From a virus: DNA of 64,000 bases. Below the pieces are notes generated by a model. That model ran no database searches and had not been told where the DNA came from. It saw only the letters and a program-made list of their open reading frames with translations. Positions 11,567-22,201 of the stretch are shown here, piece by piece. The stretch covers positions 1 through 64,000 of IMG/VR virus record IMGVR_UViG_3300030333_002570; one strand, written 5' to 3'. Positions within the stretch are counted from its first letter, which is position 1. Each line of letters opens with the position of its first letter. Position numbers and translations under genes: made by a program.

Positions 11567-11986
11567 CGTTATAAGCAAGGAAAATATATTCCGAGGCTTC
11601 CAAAGAAGTATAAAGGTGATTATCGGAACATAGTTTACCGATCATCTTGGGAATATAAATTCATGCAGTGGTGTGATAATACCCCTTCAGTCGTTGAATG
11701 GGGAAGTGAAGAGATTGCTATACCTTATATATCCCCTGTTGATGGGAAACGCCATAAGTATTATCCAGACTTTTATGTAAAAGTTGGTAATAAAAAATAT
11801 ATGGTTGAAGTGAAACCTACTAGACAAACAAAAGAACCTAGAACTCAGAAGAAAATAACTAAGCGTTATGTTACTGAGGTTGTTACCTATAGTGTAAATA
11901 AAGCTAAATGGAAAGCAGCAGAGGAATTTTGTAAAGATTATGGATGGGAGTTTATGTTAATCACGGAAAAGGAACTTAAAGTATAA
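11564..11986 (+). CDS. g4: Head completion nuclease gp4
   Basis: YRSSWEYKFM.WCD, WGSEE..IPY.SP.DGK.H.YYPDF, EVKP, NKAKWKAA. Confidence 0.93.
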   Translation: MRYKQGKYIPRLPKKYKGDYRNIVYRSSWEYKFMQWCDNTPSVVEWGSEEIAIPYISPVDGKRHKYYPDFYVKVGNKKYMVEVKPTRQTKEPRTQKKITKRYVTEVVTYSVNKAKWKAAEEFCKDYGWEFMLITEKELKV

Positions 11987-12846
11987 TGTTTGCAAGTATT
12001 TTCTCAGCAATAAATCAAATTGTTGGTGCTGTTTATGGCAATTCAACACCTGATCCTGGTGTACCTAATTGGGGTGAAGGTCGTCATTCATCATTACAAG
12101 AGTTTTCGTCATTTTTTAGAAAGCAAGCAAATTCTCCTGCATTAACAAATCTTTATTCTATTCACTTTACTACTCCTACAAGATTTAATCAACTTCCAAA
12201 CTGGGGGTTTGGTAATCAGCAAAGATATACTAACCTATTATTAGATTATTATTGTGATACTGTAAACCTACCAAGTAAACAAGTATCTACAGGACAGATT
12301 GTTACTCAGGGTGCATCTTATAAGTATCCAACTGGAAGTGCATTTAGTCAGATTAATATGACTTTTAAAATGCCACAGAATCAATATACACGAATGTTAT
12401 TTGAAAGATGGATAGCATTGATGAGAAATGATGCAGATCAATATACAGATTATTATGATGATATTGTTGCACCATATGTAAGAATTATAAAATGGGAACG
12501 AGGTGGTGGAAATAGTGTTCATCAATATAATGATAATGGTGCTCTTAGCCAGCAAGATACTAATGCTAGAGTAACTCCAGATAATTATAGAAAGCATCGT
12601 GTAACAGCTTGTTGGGAATTAAGAGAGGTTTTTCCATATAATATTGGATCGGTACAGTTGAATAATATGGAATCGAGAGTAATGACTGTTACAGTTGGTT
12701 TTTATTACTCTAGGTATAGATTTTATGGTAAAAATGAGCTAGATATACAAGATGGAAATGTTGGAACCCTTGTTCCTACTAATCCAGATAGGAGGACTAC
12801 GTTGAATCTGTTAGAACCAGATTCTCGATATATCTCTTACGGATAG
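11986..12846 (+). CDS. Tail-tube-like baseplate protein (gp54/gp19 fold)
   Basis: CDTVNLPSK, LREVFPYNIGSVQL and TVGFYY tube-fold motifs; synteny before g26. Confidence 0.7.
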   Translation: MFASIFSAINQIVGAVYGNSTPDPGVPNWGEGRHSSLQEFSSFFRKQANSPALTNLYSIHFTTPTRFNQLPNWGFGNQQRYTNLLLDYYCDTVNLPSKQVSTGQIVTQGASYKYPTGSAFSQINMTFKMPQNQYTRMLFERWIALMRNDADQYTDYYDDIVAPYVRIIKWERGGGNSVHQYNDNGALSQQDTNARVTPDNYRKHRVTACWELREVFPYNIGSVQLNNMESRVMTVTVGFYYSRYRFYGKNELDIQDGNVGTLVPTNPDRRTTLNLLEPDSRYISYG

Positions 12847-12878: not shown

Positions 12879-13592
12879 ATGGTATTACCTACATTAAACA
12901 CACCGAAATTTAAGACGAAACTGCCTTCTGATGGCAGAACAGTCAATTTCAGACCGTTTCTAGTAAAAGAAGAAAAAATTCTTCTAGTTGCAACAGAAAC
13001 TGGAGACCAAAATAGTATGGTTTCTGCGATTAAGGATATTATTAGTGCTTGTACTGATATACAAGACTCTGAAAATCTTTCGACATTTGACATTGAATTT
13101 ATTTTCCTACAAATCCGCACGAAATCCGTTGGTGAATCTGTAGATGTTACGGTGCTTTGTCCTGATGATGAAGAAACTGAGACAAATGTGAAGATTCCTT
13201 TGAATACTATTAAAATTAAGAGAACCAAAGGACATACTAATGAAATTAAAATTAGTGATGAAGTAGTTCTTACAATGAACTATCCTACTTTAGAAACCTT
13301 TGTAAAGATGAACTTTGTTCCTGATGAAACACCTGGTGTTGATCAGGTATTTGATATGGCAGCTAGTTGTATAGCATCTATTGCTGATCCAGAACAAGTT
13401 TATGATGCACAGGATTTACCAAAACAGGAAATACTTGATTTCTTAGATCAGATGACTTCTGAGCAATTTAAGAAAATTCAGGATTTCTTTGAAACTATGC
13501 CTAAACTTCAGCATACAGTTAAGGTAACTAATCCTAAAACTAAAGTAGAGTCTGATGTTGTTCTTGAAGGATTAGCGGCTTTTTTCGGATAG
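12879..13592 (+). CDS. g26: Baseplate hub assembly protein gp26
   Basis: RPFLVKEEKILL, FDIEFIFLQIRTKSVGE, FFETMPKL, LEGLAAFF. Confidence 0.93.
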   Translation: MVLPTLNTPKFKTKLPSDGRTVNFRPFLVKEEKILLVATETGDQNSMVSAIKDIISACTDIQDSENLSTFDIEFIFLQIRTKSVGESVDVTVLCPDDEETETNVKIPLNTIKIKRTKGHTNEIKISDEVVLTMNYPTLETFVKMNFVPDETPGVDQVFDMAASCIASIADPEQVYDAQDLPKQEILDFLDQMTSEQFKKIQDFFETMPKLQHTVKVTNPKTKVESDVVLEGLAAFFG

Positions 13593-13780
13593 CCCTTCTT
13601 CATAACACCTTGAAGAATTATTATGATACTAATTTTGCTTTGATACATCATCATAAGTGGAATATTGAGTACATCGATAATCTTATGCCTTGGGAAAAAG
13701 AGGTTTATATTAATCTCTTAACCGAATTTCTTAAGGAAGAGGAGCGTAGAATGAAGGAGCAGAACGCGGCTAATGGCTAA
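13586..13780 (+). CDS. g51: Baseplate hub assembly catalyst gp51-like ORF in the -1 frame, without a good start; probably reached by frameshift from g26
   Basis: -1 frame reads RIALLHNTLKNYYDTNFALIHHHKWNIEYIDNLMPWEKEVYINLL...; the only ATG (13685) is downstream of the conserved NFAL..HHK motif; T TTT TTC at 13580-13586. Confidence 0.85.
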   Translation, partial: RIALLHNTLKNYYDTNFALIHHHKWNIEYIDNLMPWEKEVYINLLTEFLKEEERRMKEQNAANG

Positions 13781-16700
13781 ATTGCAGCTGTATAAATTTA
13801 TTAATCCAGGAGGTGCAGGCACTAGTAAGGGTCTGAAGCACAATGCTGGACGCACAGCAATTTTAGGCATTAACCGTTTAGGTAGTACTCTTAATGGTAT
13901 TACTCAGATTGTTGGTGATATGGGATCTATTGCTAAGGCAACAGATCGAGTTGAAAGATTACAAGAAAAAGCAGAACGCAGAAGGTTAAAGAGAGAACAA
14001 GACCAAGCTGCTGAGGATGAATTAGAACGTAAAAATGCCCTGATGGGAAAGGGCATAAAGTGGAAAGGGGCGGTAAAAAAACAAAAGAAGGGGTTTGCTG
14101 AACAGTTCTTTGATAAGATAATTACTCCTTTTGCAAGTTTCCTTAAGATAGTAGGATCCTGGTTAATTGGACTGGGTGGTAAACTTGCTATGTACGAGGG
14201 TCTGAAATGGTTAGCAGACCCTGCTAATAAAGATAAAGTAGAATTATTTTTACATAAACTCCATGTAGTCTGGTCAAAGATTAGTGGATTCTTCATGGGA
14301 AGAATTGGTAATATAATGGATGGGTTTGCCAATTTATTTGGAACTGGTAGTACTCTTGGAGAGAGATTAAAGGGTTTAGGAGAGCTTATACTTGGAATTG
14401 TTGGATTAGGGGCGTTATTAAATCCATTTGGATTAATGGATGCTATTCTAAGCTTATTAGGATGGGATTGGTATAGGGATAAACCACAGAGAGGAACAAA
14501 TAAAGGACCGAATCAAGGTAGAAACTCAAGACCAGGTAAAAATCCAAGGTGGACTAAGACTAGTAGTTCGATTAATCGAAGGTTTGGTAAGAACGGAAAT
14601 AGATTATTTGATCAATACCGACGTATGGGTATGTCGGAAAGTGAAGCACTTAAGAGAGTAACAAGAGCTGCACGTAAGAATCCCCAAGCATTTAAACCAC
14701 CTAAACCTACAAGTGGATTATCACCAAAAGGTGCTCCTAAAGGAAAGATAATAAAACCTGGTGCTAAACCTGGATTAGGGAAGATGCTTAAGAGAACTAA
14801 TCTTAAGTTCTTAGGACCTAAAGCATTAAAGGGTGTTAAGGGTGTATTTAAGAATGTATTTGGAAGAATACCGTTCTTTGGTGCTGCTTTAACTACTCTA
14901 TTCTCTCTAATGATGGGAGAACCATTAGATCAGGCATTATGGAAAGGTGGTGGTAGTGCTATTGGTGGTGCATTAGGAACTCTTATTCCTATACCAGGTG
15001 TAGGTAGTTTAGTTGGTATGCTCGTTGGTGAGTATGTCGGTGATTTGATGTACACCATGTTTAGTGGTGGTGGAATAAAAGCAGTTGGTGATAGATTAAA
15101 ACAAGATATTAAAAACGTATTTAATCAAGTTGGTAATTTAATTAACTGGGTTAAAAAAGGATTTGTCAGGTTATATGAGGGATTGCCTAAATGGAAGATT
15201 CCTGAACTTCCAAAATGGGTTCCGAGACGAGATTGGATAAGTAAATGGATGTTGATGGGTCTACCAGGAATGGAGATCCCAAATCCTATATGGTTAGCTA
15301 ATCCACTTAATATTTGGCCAAAAGCTAAGTTAATTGCATCTGCTTTCTTTGGTGATAGTGCTATTCCCAAAGGAAAGACTGAGACTGGTCAGAATGCCCC
15401 TAAAGAATTATCTGAGCAAGAGAAAGAGAAAATCAAAGGTGCTACTTCTGGTGTCAATGCTAGAAAACGAGCAGAACTTGAAGGTAAAACACCAATTTAT
15501 AATAAGCGTGGAAGAATTGTAGGTTGGAAAGATAATGAAACTGGTGAGGTTACAAAACAAGAAACTAAGTATGCAGCACCTGATCCTAATAAACGGCAGA
15601 TGGGTAGATCTGCTGCTAAAAAGAGGCAGGAGGCAAATAAAAGTAAAAGTAATATAATATCATCTATTACTCCTACTGAAGAACCTAAGAATCAGTGGTG
15701 GGATTTTCTAGATTGGTTCCCTAATAAGAAAAAAGAAGATGATAAACCTAAGCAACAGATGGGTAGATCTGCTGCTAAAAAGAGGCAGGAAGCAAAGAAA
15801 TCTGAAACTACACAGATAGGTCCTTGGGCTCCTGGTTCTGGTGGGTTTAAGACTTACGAAGATCATTTAAATAAACCTAAAAAAGAAGAATCAAAATCAA
15901 AATGGTGGAACCCATTTAGTTGGGGTAAGATGCGTGGAGGTAAGGTATTAGGTTATGGAGCCGTACCTCCTAGACTATTAAATAAGCAATATTTCTTTGG
16001 TAAGATCTTTAAAGGTATTAGTAGAGCAGTTAGTGGTGTAGTTAAAACTGTTACGAATGTAGTAAAAAGTGTTGCTTCATCCCCTATTTTAGGAGCGATA
16101 ATGCAAGTCGCACCTATTATATTCCCACCAGCAGCACCTTTCATATATGGTGCTCAGGCTGTTATGTCTCTGGCACAAGGAAATATAATGGGTGCTATAG
16201 CACCTGCTATGGGTGCATTAGGTGGATTCTTCCCAGGTACATTCGGACCAACATCTGCTATTGGTAAGTTCTTGGATGGTCCAATTGGTAAGATTGGAAT
16301 GGGATTCCTTGAAGGTGGTGTTGGTGGTGCATTAAGTGCTGGATTGGGTGCTCTTGGTGGTAGTGACATGTTCAAGGGCAGTAAGATAGGTAAATTCTTA
16401 CAAGGTAATATGGGTCAGATGATCGGAAGTGCTGCAGCAGCATTAATACCAGGTGTTGCTAACGTACCAGGATTGTCTCAATTATTTGGAATGGAATCCT
16501 TTATGCAACCACTGGATATGATGCAAACCCTTGCCGATGGAATGGGTATGGGTGGTATGTTTAAAGCCATATCAGGTATGATGGCTGGTGGAAACTTTAT
16601 GCAAGGTTTACGAGAACTTGCACCAGAGTTAGGTGTTGATCCTAGAGTTTTAGGTGTGTTTGATAAAAGTTCAAATATGTTTAGTGCTTCTTCAAGTGGT

Positions 16701-16859
16701 AGTAGACAGAGACAATTATCAAATGAATATGCGATGCAGACAGCAATAGAATTTGTTCCTGTACCAATGCTCATTGAGAAGTTAGTTGAAATTCCTAAGC
16801 CTATACCAATAAATAATCCTATACCAGTACCAGTCCCTCAGAAACAGCAACAGAAGTAA
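13773..16859 (+). CDS. Tape-measure-like / baseplate hub protein (gp29-like) I
   Basis: 1028 aa, coiled-coil N terminus, long Gly/hydrophobic amphipathic repeats; directly after g26/g51. Confidence 0.65.
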   Translation: MAKLQLYKFINPGGAGTSKGLKHNAGRTAILGINRLGSTLNGITQIVGDMGSIAKATDRVERLQEKAERRRLKREQDQAAEDELERKNALMGKGIKWKGAVKKQKKGFAEQFFDKIITPFASFLKIVGSWLIGLGGKLAMYEGLKWLADPANKDKVELFLHKLHVVWSKISGFFMGRIGNIMDGFANLFGTGSTLGERLKGLGELILGIVGLGALLNPFGLMDAILSLLGWDWYRDKPQRGTNKGPNQGRNSRPGKNPRWTKTSSSINRRFGKNGNRLFDQYRRMGMSESEALKRVTRAARKNPQAFKPPKPTSGLSPKGAPKGKIIKPGAKPGLGKMLKRTNLKFLGPKALKGVKGVFKNVFGRIPFFGAALTTLFSLMMGEPLDQALWKGGGSAIGGALGTLIPIPGVGSLVGMLVGEYVGDLMYTMFSGGGIKAVGDRLKQDIKNVFNQVGNLINWVKKGFVRLYEGLPKWKIPELPKWVPRRDWISKWMLMGLPGMEIPNPIWLANPLNIWPKAKLIASAFFGDSAIPKGKTETGQNAPKELSEQEKEKIKGATSGVNARKRAELEGKTPIYNKRGRIVGWKDNETGEVTKQETKYAAPDPNKRQMGRSAAKKRQEANKSKSNIISSITPTEEPKNQWWDFLDWFPNKKKEDDKPKQQMGRSAAKKRQEAKKSETTQIGPWAPGSGGFKTYEDHLNKPKKEESKSKWWNPFSWGKMRGGKVLGYGAVPPRLLNKQYFFGKIFKGISRAVSGVVKTVTNVVKSVASSPILGAIMQVAPIIFPPAAPFIYGAQAVMSLAQGNIMGAIAPAMGALGGFFPGTFGPTSAIGKFLDGPIGKIGMGFLEGGVGGALSAGLGALGGSDMFKGSKIGKFLQGNMGQMIGSAAAALIPGVANVPGLSQLFGMESFMQPLDMMQTLADGMGMGGMFKAISGMMAGGNFMQGLRELAPELGVDPRVLGVFDKSSNMFSASSSGSRQRQLSNEYAMQTAIEFVPVPMLIEKLVEIPKPIPINNPIPVPVPQKQQQK
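15597..15790 (+). repeat. 35-bp exact direct repeat (15597-15631 and 15756-15790) encoding QMGRSAAKKRQE
   Basis: CAGATGGGTAGATCTGCTGCTAAAAAGAGGCAGGA occurs twice in frame. Confidence 0.95.
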
Positions 16860-16862
16860 GTA

Positions 16863-19800
16863 ATGACATCTAGTTTTCCTAAAAGTAGAAAAATTAATAT
16901 GTATAAGTTCGTCTCACCAACGAAGGCGGCTGCTGGTGCAGAGGATCCTGGGATGGCAAAACTTGCTGGTCAAACTATACAGGCAATTAATAATTTAGGT
17001 AGTGTAGTAAACAGTATTGCTGGTCTTGCTAATGATCTTAGAAATATACAACTTGCTAATTTAGATGAATTAAAAAGGAAGAAAATATTTAAAGCAAAAT
17101 TTGATAAACCTGAAAAGGGTAAGTTTACTGGATTTGTTAATGATTTTATAGGAAGGGGAGCTCCTAAGTTCTGGGAAGCATTACTTAATATGTTCTCTGG
17201 TCTTCTTAAATTGATGATTATTCGACCAATATTAAAATGGTTGGCTAATCCAGAAAATCAAGAAAAGATAGAGAAGACTTTAAAGACTCTTGATACTGTA
17301 TTCAGGTTCCTTAAAGCATTTGTAGGGACAAATGTCACTAGAATACTTGATGGATTGTACGATCTGTTAAGAGATGATGCTACGTTGTGGCAGAGGATAG
17401 GTGGATTTGTTAAAGCTATGGTGGCTATGGGGGCATTATTAGCCCCATTAATGATCCTTAGAAATCCAAGAGGGACTATAATACTCTTAAGGAATTCTCT
17501 AAAATTATTCCAATCAGGTCTTCTTAAGTTCCATAAAGGACTTAAGCTGCGTAAGTTAGGTCGTCTTGGTAAGATAGCGACTGTTGCAACTGCTATTGGT
17601 GGAACTGCTTACGTTGCTAAGAAAGGTTGGGAGTATGGTCAGGATATTGCTGACAATATGGAACCATCTGCTTTTGGTGGTGGTAGAGGTGGTGATATAA
17701 CTCTTATGGAGTTTGAAGGCTCCTTTAGTATGGATGATATTAAAGGTGGCGGTCAAACTGTCATCGGTGAGATGACCAAACGACTTGGTAATCTTGAGAG
17801 AGCATTTGGTGGTTTAGTTCCAAAAGAAGAATATTATAAGACTTTACCACAGAGAGCAACAGGTGGATGGATTAATGGACCTGATTCTGGTTATCCTGTA
17901 TCATTAGGTCGTAAAGGTGGACAAGCAGACTTTATCGGTCACGGTTTAGAGTACGTAGCAAGGAATAACAAGGGTGAAGACTACGTTATTCCGATTAATA
18001 ACTTTGCAACTAGAGCAGTTCCTGGATTGGTATCTGCTAATATGAGGATGGCACATGCTCAGGGATTTGATATTCCTGGTGAACTACCAAGAGGTAAAGA
18101 TCATTTCTTCTGGGGTAGTATTAAAAAATGGGCAACGAATAAATTTACTGATAATCATGGTATAAGTTCTTTATGGAGTAAAAAACCTAAGAATCAGGGT
18201 GCTCCAGAGGGTTCTGGATGGTTTGGAAAAGCCATGAATTGGGGTAAAAACCTATTAGGTTTTGGTAAACCAGCAGAAGAGAAAAAACCAAGTATATGGC
18301 AGAATATTTTAAGTAATGCTGGCCAAATAGGTTCAATGTTTGGTGGTAAAGGTGGTGCTATTGGTGGTGCTATCCAAACTATCTTTGGTGGAGGAGGTTC
18401 TCTCGAAGGTGGTAAGGCTAGTGGATGGGATATTGCTCAAAGTCTTATGGGTGTTGCTGGATCATTTATGGATCCAGGTAGTAAAGCTGCTAATTGGTTA
18501 GGTAAAATTGGTGGTATTGGTAGTGCATTCTTCGGACCTGGTTCTGAAGGAATGACCTTTGGAGAGAAACTTGGTAGTGCTCTTGGAGTAATATCAGGTG
18601 GAGATGGAATGCTCGGACAAGTTGGTGATGCTCTTTCAGGTGGTCAAATTGGTGAACCTACAGGATGGGCTGATCAGGGATCCATGCGTGTTGGTGAAGG
18701 TGGAGCATCAGGTAGTGGAGGTGGACCTAAAGTTGGTCGTGATGGAGTTGCAAGATCTGCTAATGGTGGTATACAAGCAGCAATTAGAGCTGGTAGAACA
18801 GCGTTACAAAAAGGATTTACTGTATCTAATCACCCTAATTTTAGAAATAATAAGTGGAAAGGAGAAGGTGCTAATAGAAGAGGTGAGGATACTTCAGGTC
18901 GTCAACCAGTACGAGGAGGAAAACTTCATCAAAGAGGACTTGCTATTGATATTACAGATCATAGAAAGGGTCAAAATGCTCAGGCAAATCTTAGAGCATA
19001 TGCTGATGAATTATTTGGAAATAGAAAAGGTCAAGGTATTGCTGTAATAGCAAATAATAAATGGGGAACATGGCAAACTGGTGGTAGTAAGAAAGGACCA
19101 GGTTCTCACACTAAACCTAATACTACTACAGTTGGTTTTGCTGATAAACAAATTGCTGGCCAAGGTGGAGTAGGACTTGGTGAAAGTGATTTAAGGATGA
19201 TGAAAAAAGCTATTGTTTCTGAATCTGGTCAGACTGATACTACTACAGGAGCATTAATGGCTCGTAGTATTTTCAATCAAGCACAACAGATTGACAGTGG
19301 TTCAAGTTCTTCTATGTTTGGTGGTGCAAAAACACCTACTGAGATAATAGAGAATTTATTCCCTAAGAGTAATATTTGGGATAAACAATTATCTTCTGGA
19401 GAGAATAAGGCAGGAGAAAATATGCTTTCTTTGGCTTTTGATACTAAAACTTTATATAAGAAATTAAAAGATAAAGATTTAAGTGATGATTATGCTTCTG
19501 CCCTAATGGGAGCATCTTCCTTTGGTAAGGGTTCCATATATGGAGCAGGTAGTAAGGATACTACTCTTGCTTGGAGTGATATGAACTTCGCTACTTCTAA
19601 GGAAGGTTCAGATGATGCTCATCAAATATATGGAGATAAGAAGAAGGGAGGAAAATGGTTCCCTGGAGGACTGGGTGGATCAACAATGTTCCCTTCTCAA
19701 ATGAGCACAGCGAAACAAGATACTAATACAAATTATGGTGGTGGTACTGCTAAACAAACAGGTGGTTCAGGAGGTACTGGTAGTATTTTAAGTGGTCCTC

Positions 19801-20117
19801 AAGCAAAGCAGAAAGCAGGTGGAGATGGTAATGGTGCAGAGGATGGAAGAAATCAAAATATGATGAAGAAGATCACTGAGCAAAGGTCAAGAGCTCAAGA
19901 ACAAATGAGACAGAGCCAAGCTCAGATGGTTCAATCAGTGATAGAAAGTGTTTCTGCTAATAATCAAGCAGTTCGTTCTTCCGTTGCTGCTGCACAATCT
20001 GCCATAGCTAATTTGTTAGCTAAATCTAGAACTGGTTCTCCAGCTTCTAGAGCAGGTGCTATTAGAAATTCACAAGCACAAATACAAAATAGTAACTTTA
20101 ACTCATTTATAATTTAA
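16863..20117 (+). CDS. Tape-measure-like protein II with putative peptidoglycan-hydrolase-like domains
   Basis: 1084 aa; N terminus paralogous to the preceding gene (MYKFVSP vs LYKFINP, WLANPEN vs WLADPAN); internal LHQRGLAIDI and DLRMMKKAIVSES segments. Confidence 0.6.
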   Translation: MTSSFPKSRKINMYKFVSPTKAAAGAEDPGMAKLAGQTIQAINNLGSVVNSIAGLANDLRNIQLANLDELKRKKIFKAKFDKPEKGKFTGFVNDFIGRGAPKFWEALLNMFSGLLKLMIIRPILKWLANPENQEKIEKTLKTLDTVFRFLKAFVGTNVTRILDGLYDLLRDDATLWQRIGGFVKAMVAMGALLAPLMILRNPRGTIILLRNSLKLFQSGLLKFHKGLKLRKLGRLGKIATVATAIGGTAYVAKKGWEYGQDIADNMEPSAFGGGRGGDITLMEFEGSFSMDDIKGGGQTVIGEMTKRLGNLERAFGGLVPKEEYYKTLPQRATGGWINGPDSGYPVSLGRKGGQADFIGHGLEYVARNNKGEDYVIPINNFATRAVPGLVSANMRMAHAQGFDIPGELPRGKDHFFWGSIKKWATNKFTDNHGISSLWSKKPKNQGAPEGSGWFGKAMNWGKNLLGFGKPAEEKKPSIWQNILSNAGQIGSMFGGKGGAIGGAIQTIFGGGGSLEGGKASGWDIAQSLMGVAGSFMDPGSKAANWLGKIGGIGSAFFGPGSEGMTFGEKLGSALGVISGGDGMLGQVGDALSGGQIGEPTGWADQGSMRVGEGGASGSGGGPKVGRDGVARSANGGIQAAIRAGRTALQKGFTVSNHPNFRNNKWKGEGANRRGEDTSGRQPVRGGKLHQRGLAIDITDHRKGQNAQANLRAYADELFGNRKGQGIAVIANNKWGTWQTGGSKKGPGSHTKPNTTTVGFADKQIAGQGGVGLGESDLRMMKKAIVSESGQTDTTTGALMARSIFNQAQQIDSGSSSSMFGGAKTPTEIIENLFPKSNIWDKQLSSGENKAGENMLSLAFDTKTLYKKLKDKDLSDDYASALMGASSFGKGSIYGAGSKDTTLAWSDMNFATSKEGSDDAHQIYGDKKKGGKWFPGGLGGSTMFPSQMSTAKQDTNTNYGGGTAKQTGGSGGTGSILSGPQAKQKAGGDGNGAEDGRNQNMMKKITEQRSRAQEQMRQSQAQMVQSVIESVSANNQAVRSSVAAAQSAIANLLAKSRTGSPASRAGAIRNSQAQIQNSNFNSFII

Positions 20118-21537: not shown

Positions 21538-21765
21538 ATGAAAACTATCGAAGACCATATTGCAGCAGACATAGCTATTATTGATGATCCTACAACTAAT
21601 GCTGCAGCTCGCAGACATTACAAAGAGGAGTTGCATGAATTAGAAGTTTATGCAGAGCATCATCATGATGAGATAGAAGCAGGAGATCACCATGATCCTA
21701 ATGCTATTGAATTATTCTGTGAGATGCATCCTGATGAGCCAGAATGTTTAATATATGACGATTGA
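21538..21765 (+). CDS. cp12: Calvin-cycle inhibitor CP12
   Basis: C-terminal ELFCEMHPDEPECLIYDD; late-type GATAAATA at 21496-21503. Confidence 0.93.
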   Translation: MKTIEDHIAADIAIIDDPTTNAAARRHYKEELHELEVYAEHHHDEIEAGDHHDPNAIELFCEMHPDEPECLIYDD

Positions 21766-22201
21766 TGACTATTTGTTAGGTCATTGGTCGAATAGACAAC
21801 AAGCACAATCCAATCCCCACTCTTTTGCCCAGACTGAGATTATATGGGAAAAAGAGGAGGATTGGTACAAATCAAAAAATTTTTATCGTGTAGATGGTCC
21901 TGAAAAACCTTATAGACAGAAAAGACATAAGATAAAGGTCTTTGAAGATAAGGTAATCATGGAGAACTATCGCTTAGACTTGACAAGGAATGAAGAATGT
22001 GATATGTTATTCCTCTTTGAGGATGGTTCTTGGCATGGAAAATTGGATAGTGAGAGATGTCGAGGGGATAGAGGAAACCGTATTGTTTCAGAAATTCATC
22101 TATATGGTGACAAACTTCATTGCAAAGATCAAGGATTTGACTCCAACAACAACGTTGTATGGGGGTCTCCTTATTTGTACCGTTTTGTTAGGCTAGGCTA
22201 A
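21755..22201 (+). CDS. cpeT: CpeT/CpcT-like phycobilin lyase
   Basis: LLGHWSNRQQAQSNP, PYRQ, CDMLF, D.G.D......WG. Confidence 0.88.
   Translation: MTIDDYLLGHWSNRQQAQSNPHSFAQTEIIWEKEEDWYKSKNFYRVDGPEKPYRQKRHKIKVFEDKVIMENYRLDLTRNEECDMLFLFEDGSWHGKLDSERCRGDRGNRIVSEIHLYGDKLHCKDQGFDSNNNVVWGSPYLYRFVRLG

Follow-up and report, generated by a model that had tools for sequence, protein, structure and literature searches.

A conserved −1 frameshift in the tail assembly chaperone genes of long-tailed phages was reportedly described by Xu, Hendrix, and Duda in 2004. The lambda G/GT pair arises from a −1 shift on an X XXY YYZ motif a few codons before the stop codon, which yields a short form and a C-terminally extended form. 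The gene for the lambda pair comes immediately after one with a tube fold, a strong stimulator is not apparent, and the products are assembly factors outside the virion. A 2016 recoding review (PMC5009743) states that this shift works at a few per cent. In HK97, gp13 is an annotated −1 frameshift pair with the major tail gene on one side and the tape measure gene on the other. In T4, gp26 (208 aa) and gp51 (249 aa) are hub assembly chaperones (Leiman et al. 2010, PMC3004832, Table 2). The gp51 proteins of cyanophages and marine vibriophages were described as being without the first ~200 residues of T4 gp51, and this was left unexplained (Sullivan et al. 2010, PMC3037559).

The window, that is, the whole 64,000-nucleotide stretch of viral DNA that we analyzed, belongs to a T4-like cyanomyovirus, the top GenBank matches of which are Kyanoviridae with about 71–73% DNA identity. 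Its gene 26 (12879–13592, plus strand) encodes a 237-residue product of the baseplate hub assembly chaperone family (PF12322, T4_baseplate, E 1e-74 over residues 9–236; phrog_150, labelled “baseplate hub”, E 7e-84). The gene ends with GCT TTT TTC GGA TAG, and this end contains, in X XXY YYZ phase, the slippery heptamer T TTT TTC (13580–13586, plus strand), from which two tRNA-Phe can re-pair on TTT TTT. The zero-frame stop codon TAG (13590–13592) stands one codon past the heptamer. The −1 frame is shut by a TGA (13565–13567), which bars any start of its own for the extension 5′ of the heptamer; it is open from 13568 to a TAA at 13778–13780 and offers 64 codons after the slip (13586–13780 including the stop codon, with C13586 read twice). 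Read from the slip site, the extension begins RIALLHNTLKNYYDTNFALIHHHKW... and continues through ...MPWEKEVY.... It matches phrog_634, labelled “baseplate hub assembly catalyst” (E 3e-31), and is by itself predicted to form three helices. A sequence-only reading that preceded our analysis had given the 3′ end of gene 26, the heptamer, and the limits of the −1 frame, and all of these coordinates were correct.

The same reading had proposed a programmed −1 ribosomal frameshift at T TTT TTC of gene 26, and on the evidence of sequence comparison we consider this explanation to be the probable one, with a probability of roughly 0.85. It is carried by the synonymous conservation of the heptamer, the coding selection on the −1 frame, the colinearity of the predicted fusion with T4 gp51, and the loss of the heptamer in phages with two genes. 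According to this explanation, most ribosomes would read GCT TTT TTC GGA and stop at TAG, generating the 237-residue gp26. In a minority of ribosomes, the two tRNA-Phe on TTT in the P site and TTC in the A site would slip back by one base and re-pair on TTT TTT, and reading would resume in the −1 frame for 64 more codons. The slip product would consist of gp26 residues 1–236 (12879–13586) and the “gp51” tail, with the junction ...GLAAFF-RIALLHNTLK; its predicted length of 300 residues (236 + 64) bears out the earlier expectation of a 237-aa gp26 and a fusion of about 300 aa. The long form would correspond to T4 gp51 and the short form to T4 gp26, both being hub assembly chaperones absent from the T4 virion. 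The slip would hold the long form at a fixed, low proportion of the short form, as in lambda G/GT. In T4, gp51 is needed only in small amounts, and a low shift rate would fit the “catalyst” label of gp51 in database annotations. Our analysis shows the slip signal, its conservation, the coding character of the −1 frame, and the colinearity with T4 gp51, and from these we infer the shift by ribosomes, its frequency, and the binding partner of the tail. The tryptic peptides predicted for the window are VESDVVLEGLAAFFR and IALLHNTLK for the shifted product and the C-terminal VESDVVLEGLAAFFG for the unshifted reading.

The heptamer was strictly conserved among relatives. We gathered four GenBank and 150-odd IMG/VR loci, and an alignment of the gene 26 3′ ends, which the sequence-only reading had put forward as a check, showed that TTTTTTC and the −1 overlap were kept in 124 of 124 distinct junction sequences with gp26 identities of 46–95%. 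The codon ahead of TTT TTC was TCT, AGT, GCT, GAT, or GGT, the last base always being T; the T run was never longer in these relatives, and the C at position 7 was fixed. Every one of them had a stop codon at the gene 26 end position (TAG in 111, TAA in 9, and TGA in 4), and the P-[WF]-E-[RK] motif was always present in the −1 ORF. When 69 distinct sequences of gene 26 were aligned by codon, the third position was invariant in 3 of the 242 columns, Met and Trp aside, and all three were heptamer codons. Nine other conserved Phe columns of this alignment varied between TTT and TTC, with five mixing freely and none fixed; the Phe codons of these genes comprised 539 TTT and 240 TTC. Since only the heptamer codons had a fixed third position, the constraint acts on the nucleotides and not on the protein, and these alignments indicate that the conservation of the heptamer is far beyond chance. 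The Phe-Phe dipeptide is itself a conserved protein motif, and therefore coding accounts for some of the T run. An independent metagenome DNA contig crossed the slip site without an indel. The motif U_UU.U_UU.C is a member of the H_HH.U_UU.Y class, one of the most efficient in E. coli; it shifts at >0.1% with no stimulator present, and IS elements make use of it (PMC4066793). These figures come from E. coli and may not be picocyanobacterial values.

The −1 frame bears the marks of a coding sequence from the slip site onward. Consistent with the first reading of the sequence, we found no usable start codon for the extension in the window: the candidates are TTG at 13610 and ATG at 13685, neither with a purine-rich SD upstream, and a start at the TTG would lose eight conserved-frame codons. 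None of the relatives had a −1-frame start upstream of the heptamer, where the frame is open for 2–21 codons. The positional entropy at codon positions 1, 2, and 3 was 0.87, 0.60, and 1.35 in codons 2–18 past the slip and 0.65, 0.36, and 1.26 in codons 19–47. The extension residues R0, L8, F16, and L18 were invariant, and H5, Y11, and N15 were nearly invariant. In 20 of the 54 distinct sequences, the first ATG, GTG, or TTG occurred at codon 18, 19, or 33; as this start is at least at codon 18, it lies past the invariant L8, F16, and L18. These codon patterns indicate that coding selection acts on the −1 frame as early as the slip site, ahead of every start codon.

This evidence also bears on the alternative that gp51 is a free small protein, made from an initiation event of its own or through termination-reinitiation immediately past the gene 26 stop codon, with the T run acting as a U-rich ribosome landing site and not as a slip site. 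Roughly one in two of the distinct relatives carries an ATG at codon +3 or +4, a few bases from the gene 26 stop codon (at codon +3 in 25 of 54, a group of roughly 50% identity), and these relatives might produce a free small gp51 as well; P-SSM4 is annotated from such an ATG, and GenBank records annotate a separate small gp51. However, the window and the 20 sequences mentioned above offer no ATG, GTG, or TTG ahead of the conserved residues, the first start being at +33 in some of them, and the group of the window has CTT or CTC where those relatives have the ATG. Free initiation would also leave unexplained why the T ahead of TTT is fixed and why TTT TTC is never TTC TTT, and T4 shows the tail joined to a gp26-like body. 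We therefore regard a free gp51 as improbable. The sequence-only reading had named relatives with an in-frame ATG and SD for gp51 and no heptamer as the finding that would speak against a frameshift; what the relatives have is the ATG at codon +3 in about half of them and the heptamer in all, so that this check does not speak against the shift.

Comparison with T4 provided a further line of evidence for the programmed frameshift. The window gp26 matched the PF12322 profile over the whole domain, and T4 gp26 and T4 gp51 matched this profile too. In T4 gp51, PF12322 covered residues 1–201 (E 4e-52), the phrog_150 match extended over 13–280 of 282 positions, and residues 147–246 matched phrog_634; T4 gp26 matched PF12322 only. 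Since PF12322 is common to both proteins and the phrog_634 tail is on gp51, T4 gp26 and gp51 are paralogues that represent a short and a long form. The extension of the window also matched the last 54 profile positions (228–281) of phrog_150, the gp26 profile, which gave the first hint that some family members carry the tail on a gp26 body. Virtual −1 fusions aligned by MAFFT ran colinear with T4 gp51, and the junction itself was ungapped; the window side of this alignment reads ...LAAFF up to the junction and RIALLHNTLKNYYDTNFALIHHHKWNIEYIDNLMPWEKEV... past it. The short form matches T4 gp26, and the predicted long form matches T4 gp51 over its full length, including the C-terminal tail. In contrast, T4 has two separate, divergently transcribed genes and no slippery site, whereas the window has one gene and a −1 ORF. 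The frameshift would supply from gp26 the ~200 residues that are absent in marine gp51 (Sullivan et al. 2010, PMC3037559). An internal product, 26′, is annotated in T4 (95 aa, the C-terminal part of gp26; 1803–2090 of the T4 record stretch, minus strand), and thus T4 gene 26 already gives two products by another route.

The distribution of the heptamer among T4-like phages followed the number of genes. A separate full-length gene 51 was found in seven phages (T4, Aes012, AB-Navy71, JY1, VR25, avDM9, and RB43), and T TTT TTC was absent from the end of gene 26 in all seven. The Phe-Phe dipeptide was kept in T4, JY1, and VR25, encoded within GAR TTC TTT, and was lost in the other four. The heptamer is thus retained only in phages whose long form requires it. 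Six distant T4-like phages had T TTT TTN at the same place, with the −1 frame entering gp51-like sequence. Their gene 26 ends are TCT TTT TTC GCG TAG in Synechococcus phage S-WAM1, GAT TTT TTC GTA TAA in Vibrio phage phi-pp2 (KVP40 species), GAT TTT TTC GCA TAC TTA TGA in Paraglaciecola GD virus 1, AAT TTT TTT ACT TTG TGA in Sinorhizobium phage phiM7, GAT TTT TTT CAC TAG in Pseudomonas phage pf16, and GAT TTT TTG CAC TGA in Rhizobium phage AF3. In RB43 (HE981739, 1001–2294), the full-length gene 51 and an ORF for a gp26-like protein of 185 residues form a tandem on the same strand, whereas the T4 pair is divergent; an in-phase T TTA AAG heptamer lies five codons ahead of the stop codon of this gp26-like ORF.

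The same fusion protein would result if RNA polymerase stuttered on the T run and added one U, giving an edited mRNA. The homopolymer of six T, or seven T in pf16 and phiM7, would lend itself to this, but the run never grows longer among the 124 relatives and position 7 is always C, as re-pairing of tRNAs predicts. Productive polymerase slippage is known from runs of about 8–9 T or more, and six or seven T is shorter than these runs; we consider polymerase stutter to be even less probable than a free gp51. RNA contigs of three public metatranscriptomes covered parts of 13000–14200, none of them bridging the slip site. The weakest alternative, in which no fusion is made from the −1 ORF and the run reflects gp26 protein and codon-usage constraint alone, is disfavored by the sequence comparisons to the point of being very improbable: T4 gp26 too retains Phe-Phe, and these genes use TTT more often than TTC for Phe, but other conserved Phe columns alternate between TTT and TTC, the wobble T ahead of the run stays the same with four different amino acids, purifying selection acts on the −1 ORF, and the heptamer is lost in phages that have no need of a shift.

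We also searched for elements that could stimulate the programmed frameshift. An SD-like purine run, GAAGGA (13566–13571, plus strand), is present, as the sequence-only reading had noted; it lies 8 nt ahead of the heptamer and is a possible frameshift stimulator. It encodes a conserved Glu-Gly, the wobble positions of which vary freely in the codon alignment, and T4 gp26 has Arg-Gly at the equivalent place. Because Glu, Arg, or Lys followed by Gly is conserved here, the SD-like run is inseparable from the amino-acid constraint; its position thus stands, and its proposed role is confounded with the protein sequence. Downstream, a small A/U-rich hairpin (13596–13618, plus strand) begins 9 nt past the heptamer, with a fold z-score of −0.89 that is not significant; this hairpin is not conserved, and RNAalifold analysis of 16 relatives gave no consensus pairs for a conserved downstream stimulatory structure.

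A search of the extension against a 5.8-billion-protein set returned two apparent in-frame fusions, P0004 (308 aa) and P0003 (141 aa), both from pilon-polished long-read ENA metagenome contigs. We rejected them as probable assembly errors, given their scrambled junctions or broken neighbouring genes. The fusions in these contigs, with a scrambled junction or a split gene 26, are probably due to homopolymer or indel errors.

By analogy, the gp26/gp51 pair appears to work like G/GT in its decoding logic: a −1 shift on X XXY YYZ a few codons before the stop codon would give one short product and one with a C-terminal extension, a strong stimulator is not apparent, a tube-fold gene stands directly upstream, and the corresponding T4 products are assembly factors outside the virion. 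The upstream neighbour (11986–12846, plus strand) encodes a gp54-like tail-tube initiator with a tube fold (Pfam Phage_TTP_2; phrog_45, the PHROG of T4 gp54). The gene order of gp54-like gene, gene 26, −1 tail, and two genes for paralogues of ~1000 residues resembles lambda V-G-T-H and HK97 12-13-16. In contrast to lambda-type chaperones, gp26 is about twice as long and has an extra C-terminal domain.

Structural comparison gave a match of middling score. The AlphaFold2 model of gp26 had a pLDDT of 85.7, and for residues 1–90 of this model the top three of 48,161 PDB chains were 2ob9, 3fgx, and 3klu. The best match, the HK97 chaperone gp13 (2ob9), had a Z score of 7.5 with an rmsd of 4.0 over 83 aligned residues, a Z below 8 being middling for this aligner. 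The scores of 3fgx and of YqbN (3klu), which we take to be an XkdN-type tail chaperone, were 6.6 and 6.4, and the first unrelated match had a score of 4.6. HK97 differs from the window phage in that it is a siphovirus and its first product, of 128 aa, belongs to a different sequence family. A Foldseek search of the gp26 model against the PDB gave nothing significant (E 2), and no solved structure was found by sequence. The HK97 chaperone family PF06222, represented by the gp13 alignment, showed no relation by hhalign (probability 0.6%), and the Pfam tail-chaperone families gave no match among 28 members. The sequence-only reading had described gp26 and gp51 as functional analogues of G and GT; this is a weaker part of that reading, tied to gene order, the T4 literature, and the middling fold match, and a sequence relation to the HK97 chaperone family was not found.

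A broader interpretation is that gp26 and gp51 are unrecognised tail assembly chaperones of T4-like phages and fold relatives of lambda G/GT, with the one-gene state being ancestral and the two-gene state of T-even phages being derived. We put this forward tentatively, at somewhat less than even odds. As chaperones, gp26 and gp51 would accompany either the tape measure or the hub protein and bring in the tube initiator. If the one-gene state is ancestral, the frameshift would span Kyanoviridae and the KVP40-like, rhizobial, and Pseudomonas T4-like phages, and the T-even state would be a hard-wired resolution by gene duplication. The tail-chaperone frameshift would then extend to the one large group of long-tailed phages thought to be without such a shift. 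A record of an Acinetobacter phage names gp51 “tape measure protein assembly chaperone”, and thus the chaperone idea is already present in annotation.

The probable frameshift in gene 26 belongs with the known conserved −1 frameshift of tail assembly genes. Our full-text search of the literature found no report of a gp26/gp51 frameshift, the PRFect paper does not mention baseplate genes, and neither does the accessible part of the 2016 recoding review (PMC5009743). For the study of recoding, a programmed shift at this site would mean that the known tail-assembly cases gain a large phage group that is ecologically dominant. It would also affect annotation, as hundreds of deposited genomes of cyanophages and other T4-like phages have a small gp51 with an arbitrary start or none annotated at all. 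The annotated gp51 starts differ among GenBank records, giving proteins of 31, 46, and 61 aa, and none of the 10 records of one-gene phages that we examined joins the two ORFs. A single join with ribosomal slippage would correct these gp51 annotations. Several cyanophage records (for example S-WAM1 NC_031944, ACG-2014d, S-CAM1, and S-CAM4) have no gp51 ORF annotated at the tblastn match, and gene 26 of S-WAM1 is annotated from a late start (196 aa).

The sequence-only reading had placed the pair immediately upstream of tape-measure-like genes. The downstream neighbour (13773–16859, plus strand) encodes a 1028-aa protein with no Pfam or NCBIfam match and a weak local match to T4 gp29 (E 0.003), and a second tandem gene (16863–20117) encodes a 1084-aa protein, also without a Pfam or NCBIfam family. 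The two proteins have their N-terminal ~220 residues in common (26% identity, E 8e-16), and their PHROGs families are labelled “endolysin” or unknown. Both genes occupy the place expected of a tape measure or gp29 equivalent. The adjacency to these genes was as described; their identity as tape measures is putative. NCBIfam searches of gp26, the extension, and the neighbours gave no matches, and a promoter and terminator scan revealed nothing relevant.

The ATG of the 1028-aa gene (13773) overlaps the end of the extension ORF and its stop codon TAA (13778–13780) in the string AATGGCTAA, and S-IOM18 has GTG in place of this ATG. The translation of the 1028-aa gene may be coupled to the region of the extension stop. 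Farther downstream, at 21755–22201, the window carries a gene for a CpeT-like antenna protein (phrog_488, E 8e-54) among the baseplate genes, a typical cyanophage auxiliary metabolic gene.
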